In this document: in pieces, positions 83 to 26,788 of the stretch | Layout: each line of letters starts with the position of its first letter | How positions within the stretch are numbered: the first letter of the stretch is position 1 | Virus record (IMG/VR): IMGVR_UViG_3300037310_000404 | Span: 62,998-126,997 of that record | Length of the DNA: 64,000 nt | Source of the DNA: a virus | Strand: one strand, 5' to 3' | Program-made: the position numbers and the translations under genes | The notes under the pieces: model-generated | The model's database searches: none | Seen by the model: only the letters and a program-made list of their open reading frames with translations | Told to the model about the DNA's origin: nothing

Positions 83-877
83 ATGCAGGAGATGAAAAAC
101 CAACAACTTGGCAATGACGCTATCGGACATCATATCATTGCGGATCTACACGGTATTAAAAATTCAGATACTTTTGATAATATAGAAATAATGAAATCGC
201 TGCTAATGGCAGCCGCTAAAAAAGCGAAAATGAAAGTAGTATCTGAGGCATGGTACAAGTTCGAGCCAACTGGTCTGACAGGCGTTTTGGTTTTGGCTTC
301 ATCTCATATCAGTGTGCATTACTGGCCCGAAAAACAGTTCTTGCATTGCGATATATTTACTTGTAATGACGGCGTTGCCGAACATGCTCTTGAGTATATT
401 ATCGATGCCTTAAAGCCGGATTTGAACAAGTCGAAAATTATAAATATTGACAGAAGCATCTACAAGGAAACAAAGCCATTTGGTTTTTCATTTTTAATTG
501 ATGGACTTGGATGCGCATCACTTAAAGATCTTGACGATATCGATATAGCCTACGACTTTTTAAATGAACTCACCGAATCCATAGGTATGACGAAGCAATC
601 GGAGCCATGCGTGGTGAGGACCGATGCCAAGAAATTTCCCGATAAGCGCGGATTGTCAGGCGCAGTTTTTTTGGTAGAATCATCGATAACTATCCACACT
701 ATATCAACGGCTGATAAACGCTTTGTTACGGTTGATTGCTACAGCTGCAGGCCGTTTGACAAAGAAATAGTTAAAAAAGTAATTAAGAAATACTACAAGC
801 CGAAAATGTTCAGCAAAGAACAGTATCTTGAGCGTGGCGTTGAATACCATGCATATAACGATTCTAGAAAGGCGTAA
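83..877 (+). CDS. speD: Tandem two-domain S-adenosylmethionine decarboxylase-family proenzyme
   Basis: Domain 1: GHHIIADLHG...FEPTGLTGVLVLASSHISVHYWPE...DIFTC. Domain 2: GLSGAVFLVESSITIHT...DCYSCRPFD. Confidence 0.8.
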   Translation: MQEMKNQQLGNDAIGHHIIADLHGIKNSDTFDNIEIMKSLLMAAAKKAKMKVVSEAWYKFEPTGLTGVLVLASSHISVHYWPEKQFLHCDIFTCNDGVAEHALEYIIDALKPDLNKSKIINIDRSIYKETKPFGFSFLIDGLGCASLKDLDDIDIAYDFLNELTESIGMTKQSEPCVVRTDAKKFPDKRGLSGAVFLVESSITIHTISTADKRFVTVDCYSCRPFDKEIVKKVIKKYYKPKMFSKEQYLERGVEYHAYNDSRKA

Positions 878-6352: not shown

Positions 6353-6401
6353 TTTATTTTCCCTCCCTTCTCGTGTAAGCATTTAGTGAATTACTAATTA
6401 A

Positions 6402-6429
6402 ATTATACCAAATCTCCGCAAAAAGTCAA
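6402..6429 (-). promoter_or_regulatory. sigma70-type promoter
   Basis: TTGACT-16-TATAAT with TG extension. Confidence 0.6.
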
Positions 6430-6489
6430 CTTCAATTTAATTTTGATATAATGATAAATGCATAATTAATATATTCTCAGGTTGAACTA

Positions 6490-7212
6490 ATGTATAATTT
6501 AAGCATTCTTTCAATTTTTAGAAACAGCTCAGATTACCTTCAAAATTATATAAACAACGTAAAAAAAGCATTCGCTCATAATGGTGGCAAATGCCATGCG
6601 ATCTGGCTTGAGGGCGATTCGGCCGACACGACCCTTCAAATGCTTGAGGCGGCTAAGAAAGAGATGGAGAATGAGAACATCACCGTGACCTTGGTTAAAT
6701 ATGACCTAGGGCTGCCTCATTCCGGCGGGGACCATCCAGAAAGATGGTTTAGGCTCGGTAATTGTTGGAATCGATGTCTGGATGAGCTCAAACCGTCCGA
6801 CTATACTGTGTGCGTAGAGAGCGACCTGATGTGGCAGCCATCGATCATAGCTAAGCTTTGTCGAGAGGTTAATGAGCAAAGAAATGTCGTATTCCCGATG
6901 CTTATGCGCCATTATCCATTCGATAACCAGTTCCACGATACCCATGGATTTACAAGGAACGGATCCAACTTCACTAATGGGTTGCCCTTCTGGAGAGTTG
7001 CCCAGGGGATGTCAGAAGATGAGAATTGGCTAGAAATAACGACTGGTGGCGGCATGATAGTATCAAAATATGACTATCAGAAACTCGGAAAATTCGGATT
7101 GCACGACTGCATCATGCATTATCCGGAAAATGTCAAACTGTTCATGAGCAAGAACTTAAAAATATATCATCCACCAGCTAATTCTGGAGAGACTGAGGTT
7201 GTTTATAAGTGA
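6490..7212 (+). CDS. GT-A fold glycosyltransferase-like protein
   Basis: EGDSADTT, N..L...DYTVCVESDL; first gene of the glycan cluster. Confidence 0.6.
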   Translation: MYNLSILSIFRNSSDYLQNYINNVKKAFAHNGGKCHAIWLEGDSADTTLQMLEAAKKEMENENITVTLVKYDLGLPHSGGDHPERWFRLGNCWNRCLDELKPSDYTVCVESDLMWQPSIIAKLCREVNEQRNVVFPMLMRHYPFDNQFHDTHGFTRNGSNFTNGLPFWRVAQGMSEDENWLEITTGGGMIVSKYDYQKLGKFGLHDCIMHYPENVKLFMSKNLKIYHPPANSGETEVVYK

Positions 7213-8135
7213 AGAAAGTACTTTTTGTAAACACCTCGCGAAAGCAGTGTGGTGTCCATCAATATGGATATAACATGTTCAGATGCCTCGCGAGGTCATC
7301 TAAATATAGTTTTGCCTACATCGAGGCTCCAAATCTGAGTGTTGCGGTAGAGGCTTATAGACAATTCGGGCCAGATATAGTCATATGCAATTATCACCAG
7401 GGCGCTAGTGCATTTTTAAATCCAAACCAACCAAGGGCCTTTGGTTTAGCCAAAACCTTCTGCATTCTGCATGAAGACATAGATGGCAGCTTTAGCAGGG
7501 GATTCTACGACTACTACATATTTGGCGATCCGCAATGGGCTTTAGCGAACAACTTTAGGCTGTCTGTTCCCAGGTTCGTTTTTGACTATGAAAACAAGAT
7601 GCCAGATCCGGAAATTCCTACATTTGGCACTTTTGGGTTTTCTTTTCCCGGAAAAGATTACAATAAATTCCTGGAAACTATTCAGTCTCAATATGACAAA
7701 GCTATAATAAAAATTCACTCTCCGCAAAATGACGTAATGATCCATGACCACCATCAGCGAATGTTGGCCGATGTCATGTCAAAGAAAAAGGATGGAATCG
7801 ATGTTCAATTTTCAAGAAATTTCTTGGAACGTGAGCAGGTGCTGGATTTTCTGGCATCAAATACGGCGAATGTCTTCATTTATGACAAAAGCAGCCATCT
7901 TGACGGAATATCAAGCGTCATTGACTTTGCCATAGCGGCTAAAAGGCCGGTTATAGTTAATAAATGTGCTTTATTCAGGCATGTTCTTCACCTCCCCATA
8001 AATATTGAAGATCATGATGTAAAATCAATTGTATCGCGTGGGGCAACGATATTCGACGAGCTCAGGGACCGCTGGTCGGAACAAAAAAACATTGAGTTCT
8101 ATGAGAATCTATTCGAAAGGATCTTGGCCGAGTGA
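7209..8135 (+). CDS. GT-B fold glycosyltransferase-like protein
   Basis: CGVHQYG, TFGF..PGK, ISSVIDFAIAAKRPVIV. Confidence 0.6.
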   Translation: MKKVLFVNTSRKQCGVHQYGYNMFRCLARSSKYSFAYIEAPNLSVAVEAYRQFGPDIVICNYHQGASAFLNPNQPRAFGLAKTFCILHEDIDGSFSRGFYDYYIFGDPQWALANNFRLSVPRFVFDYENKMPDPEIPTFGTFGFSFPGKDYNKFLETIQSQYDKAIIKIHSPQNDVMIHDHHQRMLADVMSKKKDGIDVQFSRNFLEREQVLDFLASNTANVFIYDKSSHLDGISSVIDFAIAAKRPVIVNKCALFRHVLHLPINIEDHDVKSIVSRGATIFDELRDRWSEQKNIEFYENLFERILAE

Positions 8136-8926
8136 TTCCAATTGACATGACCGCAGACTGGTTGCCCGTTGGAGAAAACGAGCCGAAAACTCACGGTGTC
8201 GGAGACACTCTCCTGATCAGCTCTGTTGTTCGCGAGATATCTCAAAGATATCCGGACAAAAAGATCATAGTAAAAACCCGTGGTCCTAAAGAGATATTCT
8301 ATAACAACCCACGAGTTTATAGAGTTGAGCATGGATACTGGGGAGAGTATGAGTTTTGGCCTCATGGCCGCTGGCGCGGCATGCATCAAATTCAGAACCT
8401 CTGCGAAAGCTATGGCATACATAACGCCGATATAACGCCCGAGTTATTTATCAGCGATAAAGAAAGAATGGTTGCCGAAAAAAGCCTACAGATGTTAACG
8501 GGTGGTAAGCCAGCCATCATGTTTTGCGGAGCAGCAACTCATCCCGAAAGAAATTGGGATAATAATAAGTGGGCCGATCTTATAGCCATGCTCAGTAGGA
8601 AGTATGAAGTCTTCCAAATGGAAGAGACTCTTCGATACGACTTTGAGTCCGGAGACATAACCGAGATCTACCCCGCCATACCGGGTGCGCGCCAAGAATT
8701 GCGTGGCTTTGGGCTTAGAAAGCTTTTTGCTATGATGTCGGTAAGTAGAAAATATCTTGGTGTAAATACCGGATGGATGGTCGCCGGATGTGCCTTTGGA
8801 TATGACAATTACACGGTCCTACAAAACAAAACTCCGTTTTGGATGTTCCCGAGAAACAAGAATTTTGTGAAAGAAGATGATTACGCTACGATCAGGAAAA
8901 CGATCGAAGAAGATTGGATGAAATGA
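8132..8926 (+). CDS. GT9 (heptosyltransferase-like) glycosyltransferase
   Basis: GVGDTLL, EIFYNNP, R.WD..KWADL, YLGVNTGWM. Confidence 0.65.
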   Translation: MIPIDMTADWLPVGENEPKTHGVGDTLLISSVVREISQRYPDKKIIVKTRGPKEIFYNNPRVYRVEHGYWGEYEFWPHGRWRGMHQIQNLCESYGIHNADITPELFISDKERMVAEKSLQMLTGGKPAIMFCGAATHPERNWDNNKWADLIAMLSRKYEVFQMEETLRYDFESGDITEIYPAIPGARQELRGFGLRKLFAMMSVSRKYLGVNTGWMVAGCAFGYDNYTVLQNKTPFWMFPRNKNFVKEDDYATIRKTIEEDWMK

Positions 8927-8980
8927 GTTTTAATAAAACACTTTAGCGGAAGAGCTCATTAAATAATAAATGAAGATTAG

Positions 8981-9727
8981 GTGAACACAGTGAAAATAGC
9001 TATCGCCAGTCGCGGCCTTGTTAGAAGTCCATGGAACAACAGCATCGGACCACACGATACGTCATCCGTCATGTGGTGCGTTGAAAACTTAAACATACTA
9101 AAGGGGCAACTGGGCGATCACGAGATAAAGACATTTTTCTGTTCGTGGAAGTATGCAAACGCAATAGAGTATGCTGGTCATTTCGATACAAGTTTACTGT
9201 TAGATGAACCGTCTCATAAAGAGTCATATGAAAGGCTCCCGAGACAACCGATGTGGTTTAGAGATCCTGGTCATTACTGTCATGGCACCAGCTCTTTGTA
9301 TAAATTTTTTCATCAATCAAGAGAATTGATGAAGACGGTAAAATCTGCTGACGGCGATTTTGATTATATCATAGCCTACAGGCCAGATCTAAGAATTAAA
9401 ATGGGGAATATCTCGGAATGGTTTAATGGAGACTATGTGATACCAGGAATGTCCTGCATCAACTTTAATGACCATATCAACATAGCGCCAGCAAAAAGCA
9501 TGTACGATGTCTGGGATTATAGTGACGAGGAGCTTCTGGCGGCAGTTGATAAATCACTAGACACAGAAGACGTATTAAAAAATCTTGTTCTAGACAGTGG
9601 TTTAAATTTTTCGACTAATGTCAATATCCAGGAATACAAGTTGCGCAATTTTGACGTGCGTGCTCATTATCATGCTGGCGGCTACGAAGCGATGCGCAAA
9701 CAGCTACTGGGGAAACAGGGGTCATGA
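8981..9727 (+). CDS. Hypothetical glycan-cluster protein
   Basis: IAIASRG...FDYIIAYRPDL...NDHI; GTG start. Confidence 0.55.
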   Translation: MNTVKIAIASRGLVRSPWNNSIGPHDTSSVMWCVENLNILKGQLGDHEIKTFFCSWKYANAIEYAGHFDTSLLLDEPSHKESYERLPRQPMWFRDPGHYCHGTSSLYKFFHQSRELMKTVKSADGDFDYIIAYRPDLRIKMGNISEWFNGDYVIPGMSCINFNDHINIAPAKSMYDVWDYSDEELLAAVDKSLDTEDVLKNLVLDSGLNFSTNVNIQEYKLRNFDVRAHYHAGGYEAMRKQLLGKQGS

Positions 9728-10224
9728 TGAACAACAGCTACAAAGATATCAAATACCTCTTTGTTGATATTGACGGCGTAATGACGACTGGCCGCAAAGT
9801 ATATGATGATGCACATGCTGTGGTTTATAAAGAATATAATGATAAAGACTTTACAGCTCTTTCGTTATTCAAGCAAAAAGGCGTGCGCGTCGTATTGTTA
9901 TCCGGCGATAAAAAGATTAATCAGGCAATGGCTGATAAAAGAAAATTAGAGGCATATTTCACGTCATGGCTACTAGTTGGCCAGGAGCCCGAGCTTCCAG
10001 AAAAAGTGCAAATAATGAAAGACCTAGGGGCTGATTTGTCACAAAGCGCCTATGTCGGAGATGACTATTTCGATATAGCTGTATTTAAGCATGTAGCATA
10101 TTCATTCTGCCCGGCCGATGCGCCGGGATATGTAAAAAGGAATTGTCAACATACTCTCGCGATAAAAGGCGGCGAAGGGGTTATTGCGGCACTCTTCGAT
10201 TTAATCTATGGCCAAGAATTCTAA
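9724..10224 (+). CDS. KdsC-like HAD phosphatase
   Basis: DIDGVMT, LSGD, YVGDDYFD, CPADA, GGEGVI. Confidence 0.85.
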   Translation: MMNNSYKDIKYLFVDIDGVMTTGRKVYDDAHAVVYKEYNDKDFTALSLFKQKGVRVVLLSGDKKINQAMADKRKLEAYFTSWLLVGQEPELPEKVQIMKDLGADLSQSAYVGDDYFDIAVFKHVAYSFCPADAPGYVKRNCQHTLAIKGGEGVIAALFDLIYGQEF

Positions 10225-10939
10225 AAATATCAGTATATACGGGCATTTGTTCAAAGACCATATATATTATTTACCAGGATTCCCAAAGGAAAACACGGCC
10301 ACCACTGCCGATGTTCTTGATGAGCGCTATGGCGGCACGGACAACTTTATACGACACTTTGTTCATATAAACAAAGTTGTGGTGAAAAGGTTCGAAATCC
10401 CTGCGACAGCTGTAATAATAGTTAATAGGAAAAATGGGTCAAGATCAAGTATGGCCTATTGGGAACCGGCTCCTCAGAATATCTTTAGGCTCGCTAGCGG
10501 CTGTGTATGGGCGCATTTTATGTATGCTGATAAAATGGACATACCGATAGATTTTCTTAAGAAATTAAAGGATAGGAAAGTTATAATTTCTGTCGATTTG
10601 TGCATTAAGAATCATGACAATAAATGCAAAAATTACTTGCGCGGCGTATTCAAATATACCGACTATCTTATAGCATCTGACGCAGAGATTGTGGATCTAA
10701 AAAAAGAAGTAAAATTGTGCAAAAATACAGTGATACACTATGCCGACAAAATAGTAATAAATAATCGAGTTTACAAAAATCATAATTATTCTAAAAGAGT
10801 CAAGAACACACTAGGGGCCGGTGACTTTTTTGCGGCCGAATTGGTGTCGGCCATGCTGGACGGTAAAAGTCTAATCAAAGCGGCTTCTAGGGCCGCCAAG
10901 CAAAGCGCCTTATTCGTGAAGGGGAAAATTAATGAGTAA
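10208..10939 (+). CDS. PfkB-family carbohydrate kinase
   Basis: NTLGAGDFFAA signature; GG..N. Confidence 0.8.
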   Translation: MAKNSKNISIYGHLFKDHIYYLPGFPKENTATTADVLDERYGGTDNFIRHFVHINKVVVKRFEIPATAVIIVNRKNGSRSSMAYWEPAPQNIFRLASGCVWAHFMYADKMDIPIDFLKKLKDRKVIISVDLCIKNHDNKCKNYLRGVFKYTDYLIASDAEIVDLKKEVKLCKNTVIHYADKIVINNRVYKNHNYSKRVKNTLGAGDFFAAELVSAMLDGKSLIKAASRAAKQSALFVKGKINE

Positions 10940-12101
10940 GACAAATATTTTAATACCTATGTCTGGAAAGGCCAGGAGATTTCTTGAAGAAGGATATGTA
11001 ATGCCAAAGCCTTTAATCATGGCTAAGGACAAACATATTATTGATTGGTCTATGCAGTCAATAGATCTAAAAAATAGCAATTTAATATTTGTTGTAAGAA
11101 ATGATCATGTCTGTAATTTTTCTATAGATAAAATCCTGAAGCATAAGTTTGGAGAAGATATCAAGATAGTGAAAACGTATCAAGACACGAGAGGCAGTGT
11201 AGAGACGTGTTTATATGCCAAGGATTTAATCAATAATGAAGATCCTCTGTTAGTATATTGTTTAGACGTGTTCTTTGAGCCGCAATTTAATCCACAATCG
11301 GCTCCAGCGGAGCTGGACGGCCTGTTGCTTACATTTAAATCTAATTCTCCAAACTATAGCTATACCGATGTTGATGAAAACGGATTTGCTAGAAATGTTG
11401 TAGAAAAAACAGCCATCAGTAACAACGCCAATGTCGGGGTATACTGCTTCCGTCATGGGTCAGATTTTGTTAAATACGCAGAAGACATGTTGGCCAAAGA
11501 CATTCGCACAAATGGCGAATTTTATATCGCGCCTTTATATAATCTGATGATCGCTGATGGTAAAAAGATTGGTATTAGAGAAGTGGAAAAGATGCACGTT
11601 ATGGGAACTCCAAAAGAACTTGAGTTTTTCACCAAGGTGGCGCTTAACAGATTTGGTGATAGAAAAATTGCTTTATGCGCCGACCATTCTGGATTCGAGC
11701 TTAAAGAGCACTTTAGAAAGATGCTAATTAAATATAAGATTGCTTATGTGGATTTTGGTTGTTATACCATTGACGATTGTGATCAAGTTGATTTTACTAA
11801 AATAGCTTGCAGGTCTGTTTTGAACGGCGTATGTTCTCATGGTATAGGTTTTTGCAGAACCGGGCAGGCCATAAATATCGCGGCTAATAAATTCGATGGG
11901 ATTAGGTCTGCACTAGTCTTTAATGATTACACGGCCGAATATGCCGTCCGGCATAATGGGGCAAACTTTTTCACAATAGCAACAAAATTTGTAAACGAGG
12001 ACGAGTCAGAAAAAATCCTTGGAAGATTACTTAACTCATCTTTTGAAGGCGGCCGTCATCAGGTCAGAGTTCAGAAGATAAATGACTTGGAAAACAGATG
12101 A
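10932..12101 (+). CDS. Nucleotidyltransferase-RpiB (ribose-5-phosphate isomerase B) fusion
   Basis: N-terminal IPMSGKARRF..PKPLI...NVGVYCF; C-terminal ADHSGFELK...CRTGQAINIAANK...FEGGRHQVRV. Confidence 0.85.
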   Translation: MSKTNILIPMSGKARRFLEEGYVMPKPLIMAKDKHIIDWSMQSIDLKNSNLIFVVRNDHVCNFSIDKILKHKFGEDIKIVKTYQDTRGSVETCLYAKDLINNEDPLLVYCLDVFFEPQFNPQSAPAELDGLLLTFKSNSPNYSYTDVDENGFARNVVEKTAISNNANVGVYCFRHGSDFVKYAEDMLAKDIRTNGEFYIAPLYNLMIADGKKIGIREVEKMHVMGTPKELEFFTKVALNRFGDRKIALCADHSGFELKEHFRKMLIKYKIAYVDFGCYTIDDCDQVDFTKIACRSVLNGVCSHGIGFCRTGQAINIAANKFDGIRSALVFNDYTAEYAVRHNGANFFTIATKFVNEDESEKILGRLLNSSFEGGRHQVRVQKINDLENR

Positions 12102-12541
12102 TACTCATATCACATCGCGGCAACTTCCGTGGCCCAAACCCAGAAAAAGAAAACACCCCGGATTATATCCTTGGGGCGCTCGGGCGCGGATTTGATGTAG
12201 AGGTGGATGTATGGGTAACTCAGGATGCATTCTTCCTAGGCCACGATAAACCAGAACATCTGGTAGAAAAAAAGTTTCTAGCTGATAATCGCGACCATCT
12301 GTGGATTCATTGCAAAAACATAGAGGCTCTTGAAATTTTCAATAGCTATGATGGTTACAAATACTTTTGGCACCAAAATGATGACTGCTGTCTGGTTTCA
12401 AATAGAGTTATCTGGCATAAACCAAATCCGGTGGCTAAATTTCCGGGCATTAATCTGATGCCGGAATTTAACAAATTAACAAAAATAGACCTGGATGGTG
12501 CTCAGGGAGTTTGTTCAGATTATATAGAGAGGTATGTGTGA
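12098..12541 (+). CDS. Glycerophosphodiester phosphodiesterase/PLC-like protein
   Basis: ISHRGN, EVDVW, LGHD, WIHCKN, GVCSDY. Confidence 0.7.
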   Translation: MILISHRGNFRGPNPEKENTPDYILGALGRGFDVEVDVWVTQDAFFLGHDKPEHLVEKKFLADNRDHLWIHCKNIEALEIFNSYDGYKYFWHQNDDCCLVSNRVIWHKPNPVAKFPGINLMPEFNKLTKIDLDGAQGVCSDYIERYV

Positions 12542-12858
12542 AGCTATTTAGAATAGAGGATTTCGTGGGTGGATGGTTCATCGGCGACTTTGAACCTTCT
12601 TTATTAAAAACTAAGGATTTTGAGGTCGGCTATAAGTATCACAAAAAGGGCGAACATTGGCCTGATCATTACCACAAAATAGGAACTGAGTATAATTGCA
12701 TAGTTAAGGGCCATATGATACTAAATGAAGTTGAGCTTAAGGATGGTGATGTATTTGTGATAGAGCCGGGACAACCATCAAAAAGTACTTTTTTGGATGA
12801 CTGTCATATTATTGTGGTAAAAACTCCGTCAGTCCCCGGAGATAAGTATGAAATTTAA
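12538..12858 (+). CDS. Cupin-fold protein
   Basis: GWFIGDF, HYHKIGTEYN; GTG start overlaps the upstream TGA. Confidence 0.7.
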   Translation: MKLFRIEDFVGGWFIGDFEPSLLKTKDFEVGYKYHKKGEHWPDHYHKIGTEYNCIVKGHMILNEVELKDGDVFVIEPGQPSKSTFLDDCHIIVVKTPSVPGDKYEI

Positions 12859-12896
12859 TTTGATATAATTATAAATAATCTTTGGAGAACCAATAA

Positions 12897-14120
12897 ATGC
12901 AAAAATGCAGAATTGATGGCTCGGATCTTGTAGAGGTTATAAATCTCGGCGAAATGTATTTCACGGATTTCGTTGATGATCCAACCGACGGGGTAAAAAG
13001 CCCCCTTCGTCTTGGTATTGGTAAAAACTCTGGACTGGTCCAGCTGTTCGAAACATTGAATCCTGAAAAGATGTATCGTAAATACTGGTACAGATCTGGA
13101 ATAAACGAGGCGATGCGCAGAGATCTGAAAAACATTGTTGAATGCTCAAAGAAATATGTGGAGGTAAATCCGGGAGATACAGTACTGGACATAGCCGCCA
13201 ACGACTGTACACTATTAAGCTTCTGGGGCGACGACATAAAAACAATAGGAATTGATCCGTCTAGTGCATCTGATCATATGGTATTCAAGCCAACGAGCTA
13301 TGTTAAAGACTTTTTCAATTCAGCTAACTACTGGAGCGTGGCCGATGAAAAAGCAAAGGTCATCACTTCAATAGCTATGTTTTATGATCTTCCGGATCCT
13401 GCCTGGTTCGTCGAAGAAGTAAAAAAGTGTCTCAGGGATGATGGTTTGTGGGTTATGCAAATGAGCTATACCCCATTAATGCTTGAACAGAACGCTTTCG
13501 ATAATATCTGCCATGAGCACATCGAATACTATACTCTTACATCTCTTAATAAGCTATTAGATGGCCATGGATTTAAAATAGTGGATGTTGAGTTGAACGA
13601 TGTTAATTCCGGGAGCCTGAGAGTCTATATCGCTCATAAAGACAACAATAAGTTCAAGCTTAATCACCACTCATTACAAATTGGAGAATTCAGAACCAAA
13701 TCGCTGTTAGCTTATGAAGATAGCCTGGATCTTGCTTCTCCTAAGCCGTATCAGGAATTCTTTGCCAGAGTAGAAGAAAATAAAAATAAGACAATGGAAT
13801 TGCTACGCAGATTAAAAGCAAACGGAAAGGTAGTCGTTGGTTACGGGGCAAGCACTAAAGGAAATACGCTTCTGCAGTATTATGGGATCGGGCCAGATTT
13901 AATCCCTTGTATCGCAGAAAGAAGTCCTGAGAAGCTTGGCAAGAAAACAATCGGAACAGGAATTCCAGTCATATCTGAAGAAGAAATGCGCGAAATGAAG
14001 CCGGACTACTTATTTATCTTCCCCTGGCATTTTGTGGACGTATTTAAAACAAGAGAAGCCGCGCTAAGGGAATCCGGCACAAGATTTATTGTTCCATTAC
14101 CATCAATTTACATAATTTAA
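12897..14120 (+). CDS. NDP-sugar C-methyltransferase
   Basis: VLDIAANDCTLL, FDNICHEHIEYY, GYGASTKGNTLLQY, FPWHF. Confidence 0.85.
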   Translation: MQKCRIDGSDLVEVINLGEMYFTDFVDDPTDGVKSPLRLGIGKNSGLVQLFETLNPEKMYRKYWYRSGINEAMRRDLKNIVECSKKYVEVNPGDTVLDIAANDCTLLSFWGDDIKTIGIDPSSASDHMVFKPTSYVKDFFNSANYWSVADEKAKVITSIAMFYDLPDPAWFVEEVKKCLRDDGLWVMQMSYTPLMLEQNAFDNICHEHIEYYTLTSLNKLLDGHGFKIVDVELNDVNSGSLRVYIAHKDNNKFKLNHHSLQIGEFRTKSLLAYEDSLDLASPKPYQEFFARVEENKNKTMELLRRLKANGKVVVGYGASTKGNTLLQYYGIGPDLIPCIAERSPEKLGKKTIGTGIPVISEEEMREMKPDYLFIFPWHFVDVFKTREAALRESGTRFIVPLPSIYII

Positions 14121-14131
14121 TCGGGGTCAAA

Positions 14132-15094
14132 ATGAAAAAGGTTTTAATTACTGGAGCAACCGGGTTTGTTGGGAGCCACATGATCGATTATATCCTGGCT
14201 AATCACCCGGACTATTCTATTGTGGCCATGAAGCGACGTAGAAGTGATATGGATAATGTGCGTCACGTCATAAACCACCCTCGCATCACATGGGCGGTTT
14301 GCAATGCCGAGGATTATGGTAGTGTTCAAAACGTATTTCAAGAACATGGACCGTTTGACAAAATATTCCATCTTGCCGCACAGTCATTTGTTAAGTTTTC
14401 TTGGGACTCGCCAATAGAGACAATCCATAGCAATGTGGATGGCACGGTAAATATTCTTGAGGCCACTAGGAAAATGTCTCCCGATGCAGTGGTGCAAATT
14501 GCTGGCTCATCTGAGGAATATGGGTATCAGGAGACGTTTCCTCTCACCGAAGATTTGTTGCTTAGACCTTTGTCGCCATACGCAGTATCAAAGGTGGCCG
14601 CCGAGAACCTTGGGTATCAGTATTTCAAATCTTATGGCATCAAGACCATTCTTACTCGCACCTTTAATCATGAGGGCCCAAGAAGAGGTGAGGTATTCGT
14701 AACCTCTACATTTGCCAAACAAGTAGCGGAAATAGAGAAGGGGCTAGTGTGTCCTGTCATTAAACATGGCAATCTGGATTCATACCGTGATTATACTGAT
14801 GTTAGAGATGTTGTCGTTGCTTATTGGCTCGCTACTGAAAAGTGCATACCAGGAGAGCCATATAATATTTGTTCTGGGAATTTAACAAAAATTGAAGACG
14901 TATTAAAAACATTTATGAGTTTGTCTCCAATAGAAATAACTGCCCAAGAAGACCCTTCGAGACTAAGACCGTCAGATCTTGTAAAACTATGCGGATCGTC
15001 AGAAAAATTTAAAAAAGCAACAGGTTGGGAACCGAAGATAAGTGTTGATACAATGCTGAAAGATATCCTTGAGTATTGGAGAGGGAAGGTCTAA
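14132..15094 (+). CDS. gmd: GDP-mannose 4,6-dehydratase-like extended SDR
   Basis: TGATGFVG, HLAAQSFV, SSEEYG, YAVSK, FNHEGPRRG, RDYTDVRD. Confidence 0.75.
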   Translation: MKKVLITGATGFVGSHMIDYILANHPDYSIVAMKRRRSDMDNVRHVINHPRITWAVCNAEDYGSVQNVFQEHGPFDKIFHLAAQSFVKFSWDSPIETIHSNVDGTVNILEATRKMSPDAVVQIAGSSEEYGYQETFPLTEDLLLRPLSPYAVSKVAAENLGYQYFKSYGIKTILTRTFNHEGPRRGEVFVTSTFAKQVAEIEKGLVCPVIKHGNLDSYRDYTDVRDVVVAYWLATEKCIPGEPYNICSGNLTKIEDVLKTFMSLSPIEITAQEDPSRLRPSDLVKLCGSSEKFKKATGWEPKISVDTMLKDILEYWRGKV

Positions 15095-15525
15095 TGGAAA
15101 CATTTGGATCATTACTCGACAAGTTGTCTATAGAGACAATTAGGCTATCCAAACTCGATGAGTCTTCTGCCGAGGTTGTTTCTGGAGTTTCATCTAAGAT
15201 TAATATATTAAAAGCTGAGATAGATGACTATATTATTGCTGCAGTGGCCAAAAAAGTTCCTATCGAAGACCCAAAATTCAAAATTTATAAATATGAAAAG
15301 CCAGCCGGTGACGTTTTTGGAGGCATCGGAGATGCTGTCGCAAGACTATTTGAAGCCAATTTAAAACTTTGGAACCTTGAAGATGTTCGTCGCGACAAGA
15401 GCGTTGCAGATAAAGACCGCCTAGCCGCATGTGATGATGTTGCCAGATGGAATAGGGTGCGCAATGATGCTATGGACTCAATTAATAATATGTTGAAAAC
15501 ATATATTGAAAATAAAAATAGTTGA
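15094..15525 (+). CDS. DUF4254-like protein
   Basis: ETFGSLLDKLSI and N.KLW.LED...RND..D.IN; TAATG coupling. Confidence 0.55.
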   Translation: METFGSLLDKLSIETIRLSKLDESSAEVVSGVSSKINILKAEIDDYIIAAVAKKVPIEDPKFKIYKYEKPAGDVFGGIGDAVARLFEANLKLWNLEDVRRDKSVADKDRLAACDDVARWNRVRNDAMDSINNMLKTYIENKNS

Positions 15526-15550
15526 CAAAAAACATTATCAATGCTATACT
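15522..15550 (+). promoter_or_regulatory. sigma70 promoter
   Basis: TTGACA-17-TATACT with TG extension. Confidence 0.8.
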
Positions 15551-15587: not shown

Positions 15588-16391
15588 ATGCGATTTGAAG
15601 AAATAGGCAAAGTTTTGCCAAACGAAGAAATAGTGGCTCTTATAAAACTGTATCGTGAAAACAACGACTACGAGGCCAGGGATAAGGTTATCATTGCCAA
15701 CATGGGGGCGGTATACAGCTTGGCTCACAAGTATGCCGGGCATTTCATCGGCAAACATGTTAGCTTTGAAGATTTAGTCTCTGATGGTGCGATTGGGCTT
15801 ATTGAGGCTATAGATAGATTTGATACCAATCTTGGGGTCAAATTTTCGACCTATTTCCATTGGTGGGTTTTGAAGAGAATAACGGAAAATATAGCTGGAG
15901 GCCCTCTTAGTCTACCATTTCACCGGACTCAAATCTATAATAAATTTAAGAAAATTCAAGAAGAACTTATCCAGTCCGGGCAACATATAGATTTTGAGGA
16001 TATAGCGGATCAGATCGGTGTCTCAAAAGAAATTCTTATAGATACAGTACAAAAACACTCCCCGACTGTTGACAACGATTCAAAAAATGAAGACTGGGGA
16101 CATCAAAAGATCAATGCCGCCATAATACAGAAAGAACGTCTTGAAGATAGTTTAACAGACGGTATTATGTTTAGGCGCATCAAAAAACTAATAAATAAGA
16201 ATTTGAGCGATCGAGAAAAGTACGTTATAGTTGAAAGGTTTGGACTGGGCGAAAATGAACCCAAAACCTTGGAGGCGATCGCTAAAGAGTTAGATGTTAG
16301 CTGTGAATTTGTTAGAGTTATTCAAAATAAAAGCATAGACAAAATTAAAAGGCTTATCAATAGTGGCCGTGGGACCAAGTCGGATGATTAG
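15588..16391 (+). CDS. sigma70-family RNA polymerase sigma factor
   Basis: Region 2 DLVSDGAIGLIEAIDRFD...KFSTY; region 4 KTLEAIAKELDVSCEFVR. Confidence 0.9.
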   Translation: MRFEEIGKVLPNEEIVALIKLYRENNDYEARDKVIIANMGAVYSLAHKYAGHFIGKHVSFEDLVSDGAIGLIEAIDRFDTNLGVKFSTYFHWWVLKRITENIAGGPLSLPFHRTQIYNKFKKIQEELIQSGQHIDFEDIADQIGVSKEILIDTVQKHSPTVDNDSKNEDWGHQKINAAIIQKERLEDSLTDGIMFRRIKKLINKNLSDREKYVIVERFGLGENEPKTLEAIAKELDVSCEFVRVIQNKSIDKIKRLINSGRGTKSDD

Positions 16392-18071: not shown

Positions 18072-18716
18072 ATGTTTGGTTTTGGTGTAAAAAAGAATAT
18101 CAAAATTATAGATTCTAGCGTCCTTGTGGATGGTAGAATACTTGGCATTATAGAGTCTGGTTTTATAGAGGGTGATCTTCGGGTGCCCCCTTTTGTTATA
18201 TTAGAGTTGCAACACTTAGCCGATTCACAGACCCACGAAAAAAGACAAAAAGGGAAAAGGGCTCTTGAGCTCTTAGAGAGATTACAAAAAACTGGATCAG
18301 TAAATGTTTCCGACGACGAATTCGACGTAGTCGAAAAAGTCAAAGAAGTTGACACGAAACTTGTTTTGTTGTGCAAAGAGCTTGGGGCAAAACTGCTTAC
18401 CGTTGATTTTAATTTAAATAAGATAGCCAAGATACATGGTGTGTCTGTTTTAAATATCAATGAACTTTTTTCTGCCATTAGACCAATCGTGTTGCCGGGT
18501 GATCGATTTACTATAAAGATCTTTAGAGCTGGGGCTATGCCGGATCAGGGTGTTGGTAGCCTGGAGGATGGGACGATGGTTGTTGTTGACGGCGCATTAA
18601 AATTTAGGGGCCAGAAAGTAGAGGTTGTGTGTCGGCAATTTAATAGCAATCCGTCTGGTAGAATGGTTTTTGCTGAAATAGACGAATCTGGTGCCAGTGA
18701 TGAAGCCGCCCGATAA
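18072..18716 (+). CDS. PIN/TRAM domain protein (YacL-like, no membrane domain)
   Basis: IIDSSVLVDGR, LELQHLADS, RGKRALE, DFNLNK, GQG.G.LEDGTMVVV. Confidence 0.85.
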   Translation: MFGFGVKKNIKIIDSSVLVDGRILGIIESGFIEGDLRVPPFVILELQHLADSQTHEKRQKGKRALELLERLQKTGSVNVSDDEFDVVEKVKEVDTKLVLLCKELGAKLLTVDFNLNKIAKIHGVSVLNINELFSAIRPIVLPGDRFTIKIFRAGAMPDQGVGSLEDGTMVVVDGALKFRGQKVEVVCRQFNSNPSGRMVFAEIDESGASDEAAR

Positions 18717-19401
18717 GAAGATAGAGTGGTATGAAAACGGAAATATAAAAGAATATGCCCAATATCGTGGCCGTAAATTGCATGGTAAAAGAATTTTGTA
18801 TTACATTAATGGGGTAGAAAAATCAGTTTCTTTTTATAAGAATGGCGATCTAAACGGAAAAAATGCACACTATAGTTCTAATGGTACTAAATTAAAAACT
18901 GTAGAGTATAGAAAAAATAAGAAGCACGGGTTGGCTATAACTTATTTCCCGAACGGCAGCGTGCAGTCTGAATATGAGTATGTTAATAATAGAAAACATG
19001 GAACATTCAAAGAGTTCTATCCAAATGGCTCTTTAATGATAACTGGCCAAAATATTAATAACAAAATCTCCGGAAAATATATCGAATTTGATAAGGATGG
19101 TAATATTTCTCATGAATGTAACTATGTTCGCGGAGCGCTTTCTGGACCTTTGCGAGATTATGAAAATGGTTTTTTAAAAAAAGAATATTTTTATAAGTCT
19201 GGGAAACTTAATGGAAAATGTACTGAGTATCATGAAAATTCTAGACAAGTAAAGTGCTCCATGGATTTTGTAAACGGAAAAAGACATGGGGATTTTCTTT
19301 ATTATACCACTACAGGGCTATTAAAAATTAAATCGATGTACAAAAATGACATCTGTACCGAGCATGTCGAATATGGAAAGCAATGGAGGCATGGTGACTG
19401 A
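18700..19401 (+). CDS. MORN-variant repeat (YwqK-like) protein
   Basis: Repeated Y.NG.L....Y.NG...G units. Confidence 0.8.
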   Translation: MKPPDKKIEWYENGNIKEYAQYRGRKLHGKRILYYINGVEKSVSFYKNGDLNGKNAHYSSNGTKLKTVEYRKNKKHGLAITYFPNGSVQSEYEYVNNRKHGTFKEFYPNGSLMITGQNINNKISGKYIEFDKDGNISHECNYVRGALSGPLRDYENGFLKKEYFYKSGKLNGKCTEYHENSRQVKCSMDFVNGKRHGDFLYYTTTGLLKIKSMYKNDICTEHVEYGKQWRHGD

Positions 19402-24193: not shown

Positions 24194-25060
24194 ATGCAAG
24201 CCTATTTAGATTTAGCTAAGGATATTCTTGAAAACGGATATGAGAGAAAAGATCGCACTGGAGTGGGAACAATTGGCGTTTTCGGACGTCAACTAAGGTT
24301 TGACCTCTCTAAGGGCTTCCCTCTTCTTACCACCAAAAAACTCCACCTCAAATCAATAATTCATGAATTATTATGGATTATTAGCGGAGCTACCAATATT
24401 CAATATCTCAAAGACAATGGCGTTAGAATTTGGGATGAGTGGGCGGATAAAAACGGAGACCTTGGCCCGGTTTATGGTCATCAATGGAGAAACTTTGGCG
24501 GCGGTCAAAAGGTTATCATAAACAAAACAAGATCCGTCGGAGCATCCACCGGTATCGGGGATGCGATCTTTGTAAATAGTGCGGGGGTTGACCAACTGGC
24601 TAAGCTTATCGACGGACTGAAGAACAATCCAGATTCCAGAAGGCATATTATAAATGCATGGAACCCAGAGGATATCGACAAAATGGCGCTTCCTCCATGT
24701 CACGCCTTTGTTCAGTTCAATGTAAGAAAAGGAAAATTCCTGGATTGCCAACTGTACCAAAGAAGCGCCGATTATTTTTTAGGAGTTCCATTCAATATAG
24801 CCAGTTATTCATTGCTTACCATGATGATCGCTCAAGTGGTTGGTCTTGAACCAGGAGAGTTTGTGCACACATTTGGAGATGTGCATATTTATAAAAATCA
24901 TATAGACAAAATAAAGCAGCAGATCGAAAGAGATCCAAAACCATTACCTAGGATTAAAATAAATACTAATGTGAAAAACATAGAAGATTTTAAATACGAA
25001 GATTTTGAACTCGTCGACTATAATCCTCATCCGGCAATAAGGGCTGAAGTTGCGGTATAA
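24194..25060 (+). CDS. thyA: Thymidylate synthase
   Basis: DRTGVGT, MALPPCH, YQRSAD.FLGVPFN, GDVHIY. Confidence 0.97.
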
Positions 25061-25289: not shown

Positions 25290-25295
25290 ATGGAT

Positions 25296-26126
25296 ATGGA
25301 TCTCAATTCCTATCTGTCTCCTGAGCTTAAAAAGATCATTCGAAAGAAGAATCTCAGCTCTGGCGAGATAACTTCGCTCGTTACAAAATACGCCAAGGTA
25401 AAAAATTTGGCTAAAAAAGACTTGTTTAAGGACTTGATCTTTGAAAACATGGCTAAAATGATTTTCAAAATGTCTGCCGACGCGTTAAAGCAAACCGGGG
25501 CTGGATCAGAGGCTTTTGCTGATTTTTTTCAGTATGGAACCATAGGGTTTATGGAGGCATTAGAAAGATTTAAACCAAGCATGAAGATTAAGTTTTCTAC
25601 ATATGCCTTTTACTGGATAAAACATTATTTGACTATTTGCAACCAGGAACTAAGAGTATTTAGAACTCCAAGAGATATCTATATCTCTAATGCTAAATAT
25701 CATAGTGTTGTAAACGAGTCCAAACTAACAGATCTTTCGGTAGATGTCATTCTCAAAAAGAGAGGCATAACGCGTGAGCAATTTGAAAAATATCGGTCGG
25801 ACTCAGAGATCGTTGGCCGAAGATTGATAAGTCTCCAGAACACGATTGGGCCAGACGGAAGCCAAAAGACTGTTGAGAATATTCTGCGTATTGAAGACAA
25901 ACAAAATGCACTCGATAAGCTAGAGAACGATGATATGCATGTATATATACGCAGGGTTTCAAAACTAATGCCAAGGGACGAGAGTTTGGCGATTGAGAAA
26001 ATATTCTATGAAGGTCTTTCGAGAAAAGAGTTGGCCAAAGTGCTTGGAGTAACACCCAGAAGGGCTGCTGCGATCGAGGCCAAAGCGGTAAAGAGATTAC
26101 ATAACAATTTAACAGCAAGGGAATAG
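25296..26126 (+). CDS. Second sigma70-family sigma factor (probably leaderless)
   Basis: DFFQYGTIGFMEALERF...KFSTYAFYWI; region 4 LSRKELAKVLGVT; ATG 7 nt after the -10 box (alternative start 25290). Confidence 0.85.
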   Translation: MDLNSYLSPELKKIIRKKNLSSGEITSLVTKYAKVKNLAKKDLFKDLIFENMAKMIFKMSADALKQTGAGSEAFADFFQYGTIGFMEALERFKPSMKIKFSTYAFYWIKHYLTICNQELRVFRTPRDIYISNAKYHSVVNESKLTDLSVDVILKKRGITREQFEKYRSDSEIVGRRLISLQNTIGPDGSQKTVENILRIEDKQNALDKLENDDMHVYIRRVSKLMPRDESLAIEKIFYEGLSRKELAKVLGVTPRRAAAIEAKAVKRLHNNLTARE

Positions 26127-26129
26127 GTC

Positions 26130-26333
26130 ATGGGAAATCAACTAACAGTATCCGGAAGCTCGGTGGGCGCGTCTGGATCACAAAAAATAGAAGTTCCGTC
26201 AGACGTTTTTGAAAAAGAACGCCTGATGAAATATCATGGTGTAACTACCGATAAGGAGTTAAAGCTAGCCATTTATCAGGATATGTTACGCAAGCAGAGA
26301 AACAAAAGATCATCTTCATCTCAGAGTATTTAA
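26130..26333 (+). CDS. Hypothetical protein
   Basis: 67-aa coupled ORF. Confidence 0.6.
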
Positions 26334-26788
26334 TGGACGCAAAGTTTTACTCTAAAACTGTTTACATAAAAAGAGACTCTGACGCAATCGAGCCGACTTA
26401 TGCAACAGCTGGTGCTGTTGGCGCTGATCTTTGTTCAGCCGAAGAGGTATCGATAATGCCTGGCGATAGGCTTTTAGTTCATACAGGTGTCTATCTTGAG
26501 ATACCGGTTGGGTTTGAAGTACAGGTCCGCCCAAGAAGTGGATTGGCTTTAAAACACGGCATCACCGTGGTAAACTCTCCTGGCACCATCGACAGCGACT
26601 ATAGGGGAGAAGTTGGTGTAGTTTTGATCAATCATGGCAAAGACGTGTTCAAAATAAAAAAAGGTGATAGAATCGCACAGTTAGTATTGAACGAAGTTCA
26701 TCGGATGGCTTTTGTTGAGATCCAAGAGCTATCCGAAACACAGCGAGGCGAAGGCGGCTACGGAAGCACCGGAGTCTCAAAACAATAA
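26333..26788 (+). CDS. dut: dUTPase (trimeric)
   Basis: [40 protein letters not shown]. Confidence 0.97.

Follow-up and report, generated by a model that had tools for sequence, protein, structure and literature searches.

A predicted sugar-activation module in a phage glycan operon, built around a nucleotidyltransferase-RpiB fusion

Background

The ADP- and GDP-glycero-manno-heptose pathways (GmhA, HldE or HddA, GmhB, HldC or HddC) follow a four-step logic in which a PfkB-family anomeric kinase (HldA) is paired with a HAD-IIIA terminal phosphatase (GmhB) that acts on the bisphosphate. HldA, whose substrate is heptose-7-phosphate, is to our knowledge the only PfkB anomeric kinase. The type II PMI-GMP enzymes (AlgA, WbpW, XanB, ManC) join, in one polypeptide, an NTP-transferase at the N-terminus to an aldose-ketose isomerase at the C-terminus; within a single nucleotide-sugar route the former catalyses the last step and the latter the first. 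Their isomerase is a cupin acting on fructose-6-phosphate and their middle step is performed by a phosphomutase. The Cys-type RpiB isomerases include E. coli RpiB/AlsB and C. thermocellum RpiB; the E. coli RpiB also isomerises allose-6-phosphate.

A phage-encoded example is the Afh pathway of the arabinosyl-5-hydroxycytosine phages (HY126 AfhE/AfhF; RB69 gp51, gp52-53 and gp55; DLP3 gp81-83), which makes UDP-arabinofuranose in the order Ru5P > Ara5P > Araf-1,5-P2 > Araf-1-P > UDP-Araf (PMC13326640). It uses a pentulose-5-phosphate isomerase, an anomeric kinase giving the 1,5-bisphosphate, a HAD terminal phosphatase and a nucleotidyltransferase (NT), with one pathway enzyme fused to the NT (PMC13326640). 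The isomerase has the SIS arabinose-5-phosphate isomerase fold, the fused kinase is APH-like and the NT is MurU-like.

Here we describe a five-gene module in a 64,000-nucleotide stretch of phage DNA (the window) from an IMG/VR record of 127 kb that is ~66% complete. Most likely the module is a route to an activated sugar for a phage-made glycan. No earlier description of it was found in the literature.

Organization of the module and its operon

The features discussed below are the following, in window coordinates.

6490-15525, + strand: 12-gene phage glycan operon containing the module (gene order and domain matches)
8132-8926, + strand: GT9-like gene (weak, short match, 25 bits)
8981-9727, + strand: DUF7796/WavE-like protein, 248 aa, candidate glycosyltransferase (hhalign)
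9724-10224, + strand: HAD-IIIA phosphatase of the KdsC/KDN-9-P clade, 166 aa (profile and PDB matches)
10208-10939, + strand: mini PfkB/ribokinase-like kinase, 243 aa (Pfam PfkB, 30.8 bits)
10932-12101, + strand: fusion of 389 aa, sugar-1-phosphate-type NT (~1-240) and Cys-type RpiB (~245-389) (domain matches)
12098-12541, + strand: mini-GDPD, 147 aa, a stripped-down glycerophosphodiester-phosphodiesterase fold (AF2 model and invariant residues)
12538-12858, + strand: metal-binding cupin, 106 aa (Cupin_2, 5e-4)
12897-14120, + strand: NDP-sugar C-methyltransferase, TylCIII-like (Methyltransf_14, 3.9e-46)
14132-15094, + strand: extended SDR of the GDP-sugar 4,6-dehydratase / 4-reductase clade (PDB matches)

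ORF coordinates and domain searches place all five module genes on the + strand at 9724-12858. From the upstream 248-aa gene to the cupin the start/stop overlaps are 4, 17, 8, 4 and 4 nt, the first being an ATGA shared with the HAD start. The translational coupling proposed in the initial annotation is borne out by these overlaps, as are its five protein identities (KdsC-like HAD, PfkB kinase, NT::RpiB fusion, phosphodiesterase-like protein and cupin) by motif, profile and structure-model matches. For the cupin, GTG 12538 is the most likely start and not the TTG 12511 of the mechanical ORF, because the former gives a GTGA overlap, a GAGAGG Shine-Dalgarno sequence and a length of 106 aa as in relatives.

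The operon comprises a GT2, a 308-aa protein of no assigned function, the GT9-like gene, the DUF7796-like gene, the module, the C-methyltransferase, the SDR and a DUF4254 gene. A divergent promoter region lies at its 5' side (~6400-6470), a strong promoter (15522-15550) precedes the gene that follows it, and no convincing internal terminator was found within 6490-15525.

This context sets the module apart from the Afh system: the phage is without a 5-hydroxycytosine synthase or a DNA glycosyltransferase, and its ThyA is canonical. Together with a dUTPase, the canonical thymidylate synthase means that nothing suggests DNA hypermodification. The same genes argue against a role in nucleotide supply or counter-defence through the synthesis or breakdown of a ribose-based nucleotide metabolite (ADP-ribose, PRPP or NAD type), which we consider very improbable. 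All module parts handle ribose-like phosphates and the phage encodes a nicotinamide phosphoribosyltransferase (41587-42978). However, this NAD gene lies 30 kb from the module, and every locus embeds the module among glycosyltransferases, sugar methyl-, sulfo- and aminotransferases and SDRs.

Core enzymes

The HAD protein retains both the DxDG and GDDxxD motifs. Its best matches (NCBIfam 3e-24; PDB 3e81/1j8d 2e-19) are of the KdsC type, which distinguishes it from the Afh phosphatase and from GmhB, whose model it matches at only E 0.006. By analogy we propose that it is a terminal (omega) phosphatase on a sugar-1,omega-bisphosphate.

The kinase exceeds the Pfam PfkB cut-off of 25.8 bits, contains the GG..N and GAGD motifs and belongs to an almost wholly metagenomic, unnamed family, in whose alignment G12, D17, G42, N46 and G203-A-G205-D206 are invariant. 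It is a separate PfkB-type protein, unlike the Afh kinase, and a mini form without specific resemblance to HldA. The AF2 model (pLDDT 86.5) is nearest to ribokinase 5zwy (E 3e-13), the M. jannaschii nucleoside kinase 2c4e and ketohexokinase. These neighbours are furanose-binding kinases, which counts for a pentose substrate, but they phosphorylate primary and not anomeric hydroxyls, which counts against the anomeric (C1) kinase role that we propose by analogy.

The fusion recalls the type II PMI-GMP architecture, although its isomerase is an RpiB and a kinase and phosphatase stand in place of the phosphomutase. The NT domain scores slightly below the Pfam cut-off, matches the NDP-sugar pyrophosphorylase 4EVW at 1.8e-18 and has invariant G12, R16, K26, D112, E158 and K159. 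It resembles neither HldC, HddC nor the Afh NT, and by its closest relatives it is classed as a sugar-1-phosphate nucleotidyltransferase. The RpiB domain (match 8e-36) scores 100-128 bits against Cys-type RpiBs and 50-64 bits against LacA/B and the Mtb type, and, at 104 vs 138.65, does not reach the NCBIfam equivalog cut-off for rpiB. It shares with the Cys-type enzymes the fold and the Asp-His, Cys, Thr, His-Asn and Arg..Arg residues: D251, H252, C308, R309, H341, N342, R375, H376 and R379 are invariant and 90% or more of the sequences keep T310. Judged by residues, the domain is catalytically intact, with all Cys-type catalytic and phosphate-binding positions kept. It differs from the free-standing enzymes in its fusion to an NT and in an invariant Arg for Gly after the catalytic Cys (C-R-T-G for the canonical C-G-T-G); Arg309 hints at a modified substrate, which counts against the ribose-5-phosphate route proposed below. 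The RpiB fusion had been taken to indicate the substrate, and the intact active site does point to ribose-5-phosphate/ribulose-5-phosphate, or to allose-6-phosphate.

Consecutive steps are often catalysed by fused domains, and the NT could act directly on the terminal phosphate of the RpiB product. This would yield an NDP-5-linked ketopentose or, once reduced, an alditol (CDP-ribulose/CDP-ribitol type), transferred as a phospho-sugar, with the mini-GDPD acting on a glycerophosphodiester-like linkage. CDP-xylulose/arabinitol and CDP-6-fructose/glucitol synthesis serve as models, with precedents in S. pneumoniae AbpA/AbpB and C. jejuni HS:5 CDP-6-D-fructose; the GDPD fold suits X-O-P-O-CH2-CH(OH)- substrates and an SDR of the NDP-keto-sugar reductase type is often present. 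We nevertheless regard this route as improbable: the kinase and HAD, which are strictly co-inherited, would have no part in it, the NT is closest to sugar-1-phosphate enzymes and many loci are without a reductase.

Distribution of the module

The module recurs in many phage contigs, mostly marine. A lack of co-occurrence elsewhere had been named beforehand as one outcome that would refute the proposal, but the genes do co-occur: the HAD, kinase and fusion are together in 26/26 loci (23 retrieved via the fusion and three via kinase homologues) and contiguous in 23. For the fusion-retrieved loci alone the counts are 23/23 and 20, the HAD lying 5' of the fusion in every one with upstream DNA, and all three blind-chosen kinase homologues sit between a HAD and a fusion. 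The trio is contiguous in both closest relatives too, which retain all five genes in the same order, and is carried by the cultured cyanophages Bellamy and SynMITS9220M01. The fusion is abundant: at E<=1e-10 it is matched by 1868 proteins, single-domain matches included, and the best 120 of these are all full-length fusions. A search of 185,579 cellular species genomes did not find it; of its two domains only the NT occurs there.

The HAD, the kinase and the two fused domains alone would make up a complete route. GmhA-like genes are present in just 2/26 loci, and neither a SIS isomerase nor a second NT was found in the source phage genome as far as the ~66% complete record covers it. Canonical heptose-pathway genes stand beside the module in Bellamy, SynMITS9220M01 and locus L140. 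In 8/26 loci the fusion lies next to a split transketolase, a further enzyme family of the non-oxidative pentose-phosphate pathway.

Predicted pathway and its product

The module probably follows a general scheme of isomerase, anomeric kinase, terminal phosphatase and nucleotidyltransferase. First, the RpiB domain would interconvert ribulose-5-phosphate and ribose-5-phosphate. The mini-PfkB may then phosphorylate the anomeric hydroxyl to give the sugar-1,5-bisphosphate, as HldA and AfhE do with their substrates, and the KdsC-like HAD would strip the terminal phosphate, as do GmhB and AfhF. Lastly, the NT domain would join the sugar-1-phosphate to an NTP. The NDP-heptose-like logic of the initial annotation is plausible, each step having a precedent (HldA, GmhB/AfhF, type II PMI-GMP) and the whole a parallel in Afh; a pentose product is not established. 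The reading that explains the module best, which we hold at even odds, is a self-contained virus-borne pathway that starts from a pentose-phosphate-pathway sugar phosphate and supplies a glycan encoded by the phage with a nucleotide sugar.

Tentatively we favour NDP-D-ribofuranose as the product, which differs from the UDP-arabinofuranose of Afh in being its C2 epimer. The isomerase here has the RpiB fold, with a ribo, C2-(R) product, in place of the SIS fold. Several observations count against this reading. Ribose-5-phosphate is already abundant in cells, so the need for an RpiB is not obvious. SDRs of the 4,6-dehydratase/4-reductase type need a pyranose hexose or heptose, and bacterial loci of the NT clade have adjacent Gmd/Rmd-type pairs. 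Known ribofuranosylation uses PRPP as donor and not NDP-ribose (PMC12096443).

The SDR of the operon falls below the NCBIfam cut-offs for LegB, Gmd and RmlB. Its nearest PDB matches are the GDP-6-deoxy-4-hexulose reductase Rmd (2pk3, 230 bits) and the GDP-D-glycero-D-manno-heptose 4,6-dehydratase (7us5, 221 bits), and for this reason the pentose is not secured. The same four steps could instead lead to a nucleotide-activated hexose or heptose in pyranose form, probably carrying GDP, that the cupin, C-methyltransferase and SDR turn into a 6-deoxy, C-methylated sugar, an outcome that we think rather unlikely. RpiB might act as an allose-6-phosphate/psicose-6-phosphate-type or heptulose-7-phosphate isomerase, always giving a C2-(R) aldose. 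Alternatively RpiB, with transketolase, might only raise sedoheptulose-7-phosphate while the kinase, HAD and NT use heptose-7-phosphate from a host or phage GmhA. The substrate of HldA and the allose-6-phosphate activity of E. coli RpiB fit such a product, as do the GT9-like gene in the operon, WavE-like genes nearby and, in one bacterial NT-clade locus, a SIS isomerase. The SDR family is a frequent neighbour (14 loci), with the cupin directly before it in L144, L005 and L135 and methyltransferase genes between the two in the source phage and L143. However, the SDR is missing from ~40% of fusion loci, including the entire L018-L026 group, and no psicose-6-phosphate source is evident. The scarcity of GmhA-like genes, the canonical heptose genes already beside some modules and an active site that is that of ribose-5-phosphate enzymes also speak against it. 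The SDR and C-methyltransferase could use host GDP-mannose independently of the module; the C-methyltransferase, also found in L005 and L143, is a neighbouring operon branch outside the core.

The likely transferase of the module is the DUF7796/WavE-like protein. It has no Pfam match, but resembles the DUF7796-like family that adjoins the module in 17 loci (hhalign E 2.8e-4, prob 41%) and shares its KIAL..G, HxW and YDxVIxRxD motifs. A GT9 had been placed two genes upstream of the module; the 248-aa gene does intervene before the HAD, but the GT9 match itself is weak and short. The GT9 link is not conserved, the putative transferase beside the module being DUF7796/WavE-like in most loci.

Mini-GDPD and cupin

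The four-step scheme leaves the roles of the mini-GDPD and cupin unexplained. Both are general NT-clade partners, present even without the RpiB, PfkB and KdsC-like HAD. The mini-GDPD has no Pfam match, but its AF2 model (pLDDT 93) has GDPD structures as top Foldseek matches (1v8e/1vd6/1o1z), and the GDPD catalytic residues H6, R7, N19, E35, D37, H49 and K73 are invariant in its family alignment. We propose that it hydrolyses a sugar cyclic phosphate or phosphodiester; speculatively, a labile NDP-furanose may decay to a sugar 1,2-cyclic phosphate, whose ring the mini-GDPD would open again. The NT clade has it as a companion in nearly every viral locus, and also in loci of Pelagibacter, SAR86 and Prochlorococcus.

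The cupin has generic matches only in the PDB. A role as a sugar or sugar-phosphate isomerase/epimerase is proposed, speculatively as a metal-dependent accessory. Its motif 1 (G-X5-H-X-H-X4-E-X6-G) is intact, with H44, H46 and E51 invariant in 30 homologues, and most bacterial loci of non-marine origin have it beside or close to the NT.

Organization of the module

Five genes between 9724 and 12858 of the window were originally proposed to form a sugar activation module. All five are real, and their products belong to the families listed here.

Genes of the module (window coordinates, strand, product and basis of assignment)
9724-10224, +, HAD-IIIA phosphatase of the KdsC/KDN-9-P type (family models)
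10208-10939, +, PfkB kinase, 243 aa (Pfam)
10932-12101, +, NTP-transferase::RpiB fusion, 389 aa (family models and PDB matches)
12098-12541, +, mini-GDPD, 147 aa (no Pfam match)
12538 (GTG, most likely start), +, small cupin, 106 aa

The genes are translationally coupled, as had been claimed. Starts and stops overlap by 4, 17, 8, 4 and 4 nt from an upstream 248-aa gene, whose product weakly matches the DUF7796/WavE-like family, through to the cupin. The GTG at 12538 is the most likely cupin start because it overlaps the preceding stop, follows a GAGAGG Shine-Dalgarno sequence and yields a 106-aa protein as in its relatives.

The module is part of a single plus-strand unit, the glycan operon (6490-15525), within which no convincing terminator was found. 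The operon is bounded on one side by a divergent promoter region (approximately 6400-6470) and on the other by a strong promoter (15522-15550) ahead of a sigma-factor gene. The latter promoter has a near-consensus extended -10 and precedes the first of two phage-encoded sigma-70-family factors (15588-16391 and 25290-26126, +). Just 3' of the operon (18072-19401, +), a PIN-TRAM-like nuclease gene overlaps the 5' end of a gene for a MORN-repeat protein. The complete IMG/VR phage record is 126,997 bp long and approximately 66% complete, and the window is its second half. No close isolate relative of this phage was found in taxonomic placement.

Features of the encoded proteins

The RpiB domain of the fusion is of the Cys type and scores 100-128 bits against the C. 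thermocellum, T. maritima and E. coli enzymes, versus 50-64 bits against LacA/LacB and the Mtb type. It falls within the RpiB/LacA/LacB family (TIGR00689, 117.9 against a cut-off of 88.3; Pfam LacAB_rpiB, 123 bits) and below the rpiB equivalog cut-off (104 against 138.65). The catalytic pattern that was sought (Asp-His, Cys-x-Thr, His-Asn and Arg-x3-Arg) is present. Across 17 diverse fusions, Asp251-His252, Cys308, His341-Asn342, Arg375, His376 and Arg379 do not vary, and Thr310 hardly does. Arg309 is also invariant in the fusions, at a position where the canonical C-G-T-G motif has Gly. The nucleotidyltransferase (NT) domain retains G12, R16, K26, D112 and E158-K159. Its nearest relative is the uncharacterised NDP-sugar pyrophosphorylase 4EVW, followed by broad-specificity sugar-1-P nucleotidyltransferases.

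The small kinase (mini-PfkB) is a PfkB family member by Pfam (PF00294, 30.8 against a gathering score of 25.8), and the motifs GG..N (N-terminal) and GAGD (C-terminal) are invariant across the family alignment (A3). In structure, its model (pLDDT 86.5) comes closest to ribokinase (Foldseek E 3e-13), archaeal nucleoside kinase and ketohexokinase, and not to HldA. The family consists of 220-245-aa proteins, nearly all metagenomic and unnamed. It is too divergent for tblastn, which gave no match among isolate phages, and was recovered by profiles and synteny only.

The HAD-IIIA protein scores 85.9 bits with the KDN-9-P phosphatase model (NF058599, cut-off 180) and 70.8 bits with the KdsC model (TIGR01670, cut-off 106.95). 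The GmhB model reaches an E-value of only 0.0058, so the protein is not of the GmhB type. These scores describe a divergent relative of the KdsC/YrbI phosphatases that lies below the subfamily cut-offs. A KdsC-like HAD brings to mind a Kdo- or KDN-like ulosonic acid route. This candidate was rejected because neither a KdsA/NeuB-type synthase nor a KdsB-type synthetase was found among the operon genes examined, and because the kinase would be left idle.

The 147-aa protein gives a confident model (pLDDT 93), and its top structural matches are glycerophosphodiester phosphodiesterases (GDPDs; E 5e-4, TM 0.57 on the query). With 147 aa it has only approximately 60% of a GDPD TIM barrel and is a candidate member of the family. 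The GDPD catalytic set H6, R7, E35, D37, H49 and K73 is invariant across 43 homologues. Matches to clostridial toxin repeats were dismissed as noise that short YF-type repeats produce through their composition; the match to GDPDs is probably the meaningful one, and the fold supports it. The cupin has an invariant His-His-Glu metal site. Sequence and profile searches against the PDB returned generic cupins only, and the protein is therefore assigned neither to the RmlC/FdtA type nor to PMI.

Co-occurrence and distribution

The expectation that the genes would co-occur elsewhere was borne out. All 23 loci that were retrieved by way of the fusion have the HAD, PfkB and fusion genes together, 20 of them as an uninterrupted run and three with one to three genes intervening. 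Kinase homologues picked without reference to the fusion lie between the HAD and NT::RpiB genes in 3/3 cases. The order HAD-PfkB-fusion-mini-GDPD-cupin is preserved in both of the closest relatives (74% and 64% identity). In one of them an SDR gene comes immediately next; in the other, methyltransferase genes intervene. The proposed tie to a GT9 did not hold, as the GT9-like gene of the window is not conserved with the module. The GT2, 308-aa and DUF4254 genes of the window are likewise not conserved with it.

The fusion query gave 1868 protein matches at E<=1e-10, a count that includes proteins matching one domain only. Every one of the best 120 is a full-length protein of 380-393 aa with at least 52% identity, and many of them are marine. 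Bellamy and SynMITS9220M01, two Synechococcus phages in culture, carry the fusion. When 185,579 cellular species genomes were scanned with profiles, no fusion was detected, and the NT domain occurred there only by itself, at 44% identity or less. The module is widespread and virus-restricted. Full-text literature searches found nothing on the fusion or the module. Its abundance in aquatic viromes and its presence in the two cultured phages make it directly testable.

The NT clade in other settings

Relatives of the NT domain (the NT clade) also occur without RpiB. The arrangements found in the fetched loci, each with coordinates of its own, are listed here.

NT clade arrangements and neighbors of the module in fetched loci
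HAD_2 (beta-phosphoglucomutase-like)::NT, then mini-GDPD: L008:5344-6729 (S-CAM9 gp067); L060:7353-8723 (Pelagibacter)
Module like the phage UDP-arabinofuranose (Afh) pathway, beside the RpiB module: L019:8807-11057; also L018, L020 and L024; variant in L021 and L022
Split transketolase-like pair beside NT::RpiB: L012:9154-10267; also L003, L013, L017, L023, L059, L141 and L142

Many cyanomyoviruses, S-CAM9 among them, have the HAD_2::NT fusion followed by mini-GDPD, as do Pelagibacter, Prochlorococcus, SAR86 and Poseidoniales. That this cassette is common to cyanomyoviruses and to abundant marine bacteria and archaea suggests that it has been exchanged between hosts and phages. In many other bacteria a stand-alone NT sits beside a small cupin, a HAD_2 protein and Gmd/Rmd-type SDRs. 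Because the NT clade is accompanied by mini-GDPD or cupin outside the RpiB setting as well, both are general partners of the clade. The KdsC-like HAD, mini-PfkB and RpiB fusion are a virus-specific addition to it. The mini-GDPD and the 106-aa cupin represent two large, virus-dominated, unnamed families, for which the module provides a defined biochemical context.

The Afh-like module seen in some phage loci comprises an APH-like kinase (255 aa), an NT::HAD fusion (342 aa) and a mini-GDPD. The split transketolase pair (Transketolase_N, 215 aa, and Transket_pyr, 159 aa; 8/26 loci) could supply pentose-phosphate-pathway flux or could be a ThDP-dependent sugar-branching enzyme. Just upstream of the glycan genes in one phage contig, a gene (L019:277-1380) has a DruA (Druantia defence) domain match (2.4e-7).

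In two metagenomic proteins of approximately 830 aa (P0222 and P0223), an NT of the same clade is fused to both HAD_2 and GT61 (PF04577), in the order HAD_2::NT::GT61. Such triple fusions link the nucleotidyltransferase to a glycosyltransferase family in the Rosetta-stone sense. The search for longer fusions of the whole module found none, only this form and unrelated RpiB-SHMT fusions.

Relationship to known pathways

In NDP-heptose synthesis the PfkB-type HldA and the HAD GmhB are precedents for the kinase and phosphatase steps. The isomerase and the phosphatase nevertheless differ. GmhA has the SIS fold whereas the isomerase of the module has the RpiB fold, and no SIS or SIS_2 match was found in the 127-kb record. 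The anomeric heptose-7-P kinase is PfkB-type HldA or GHMP-type HddA; the module kinase has the PfkB fold and the GAGD catalytic motif, is structurally nearest to other kinases and may act at the same position. The phosphatase is GmhB in one and a HAD of the KdsC/KDN-9-P type in the other. Type II PMI-GMP enzymes are NT::isomerase fusions with a cupin phosphomannose isomerase domain; the domain order is the same as here, but the isomerase here is RpiB.

The phage Afh route proceeds from Ru5P through Ara5P, Araf-1,5-bisphosphate and Araf-1-P to UDP-Araf (PMC13326640). Its isomerase is a SIS-type arabinose-5-P isomerase, its APH-like kinase and MurU-like NT form a single fusion protein, and its phosphatase is a HAD. 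The module has RpiB, a separate PfkB and a 4EVW-like NT instead, and the two share no more than the HAD step and the overall logic. The Afh pathway also comes with DNA arabinosyltransferases and with a ThyA-like synthase of 5-hydroxy-dCMP, whereas this phage has no such DNA-modification partners. Its sole ThyA homologue (24194-25060, +) scores 429 bits against a thymidylate synthase equivalog cut-off of 327, and a dUTPase gene is nearby (26333-26788, +). Judged from these two genes, the phage probably has ordinary thymine DNA, and an Afh-like use in DNA hypermodification was rejected. The module therefore resembles the NDP-heptose and Afh pathways in logic yet would belong to neither, since it lacks a SIS isomerase, GmhB-type or APH-type components, and DNA-modification partners.

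Proposed pathway and product

The initial annotation interpreted the module as a four-step pathway activating a pentose or other unusual sugar. The four-step part is plausible, as the conserved activities are complete and each step has a precedent; a pentose is one candidate for the product. Overall, that interpretation is partly supported. Isomerase, anomeric kinase, terminal phosphatase and nucleotidyltransferase would act in turn to convert a pentose-phosphate-pathway intermediate to a nucleotide sugar, and this general scheme is reasonably probable. If it holds, it is the third independent invention of such a route, after NDP-heptose and phage UDP-arabinofuranose, and one built from different protein families. 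A new nucleotide sugar donor may emerge from it.

RpiB and arabinose-5-P isomerase both use Ru5P and give C2 epimers, so the most economical product would be NDP-D-ribofuranose. As a specific assignment this is tentative and somewhat unlikely. The likeness of the kinase to furanose-binding kinases and the split transketolase fit it weakly. R5P is already abundant in cells, which counts against the need for RpiB in a ribose route. In the ribose scheme the NT::RpiB fusion, mini-PfkB as the anomeric kinase and the KdsC-like phosphatase would act by way of ribose-1,5-bisphosphate. The mini-GDPD might, speculatively, re-open sugar 1,2-cyclic phosphates formed by decay of a labile NDP-furanose. The ribofuranose would then enter a phage-directed glycan on virions or the host surface. 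The full proposal is that marine and freshwater phages, cultured cyanophages included, make NDP-D-ribofuranose, so far unknown in biology, through this intermediate and with mini-GDPD salvage for such a glycan; in this complete form it is doubtful. Known bacterial ribofuranosylation uses PRPP plus a phosphatase (PMC12096443). Because that process is PRPP-dependent, an NDP-ribose donor would be new and, if true, the route would be wholly unlike the bacterial one.

The genes 3' of the cupin bear on the product as well. In the lineage of the window the cupin is followed by an SDR gene (14132-15094 in the window, extended type). Among solved structures its product best matches GDP-6-deoxy-D-lyxo-4-hexulose reductase (230 bits) and GDP-D-glycero-D-manno-heptose 4,6-dehydratase (221 bits). 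In the window itself a TylCIII-type C-methyltransferase gene (12897-14120) also follows, and the bacterial NT clade adjoins Gmd/Rmd pairs. Gmd/Rmd-type SDRs and such C-methyltransferases require a pyranose hexose or heptose. Either the product of the module is such a pyranose, or the SDR/C-methyltransferase branch uses host GDP-mannose to make a second sugar of the same glycan. A canonical heptose pathway with RpiB in place of GmhA was downgraded. RpiB/LacAB enzymes yield C2-(R) aldoses, several phages have canonical heptose genes alongside the module, and GmhA-like genes are rare (2/26 fusion loci) and absent from the 127-kb record.

The reprogramming of the pentose phosphate pathway by cyanophages is well known, and the module would link it to glycan synthesis. 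It would also offer a handle on the purpose of phage-made glycans, whether virion glycosylation, host-surface remodelling or superinfection exclusion.

Other genes in the window

The 264-aa protein encoded at 83-877 (+) has two stretches that match Bacillus-type S-adenosylmethionine decarboxylase (TIGR03330, 3e-40) and looks like a duplicated or fused form of the enzyme. A nicotinamide phosphoribosyltransferase of 463 aa is encoded at 41587-42978 (+), with 50-55% identity to phage NAMPTs (Mx1, RsoM2USA and cyanophage B23). The gene suggests that the phage has a module for NAD salvage or counter-defence. A 311-aa gene (40648-41583) adjoins it.
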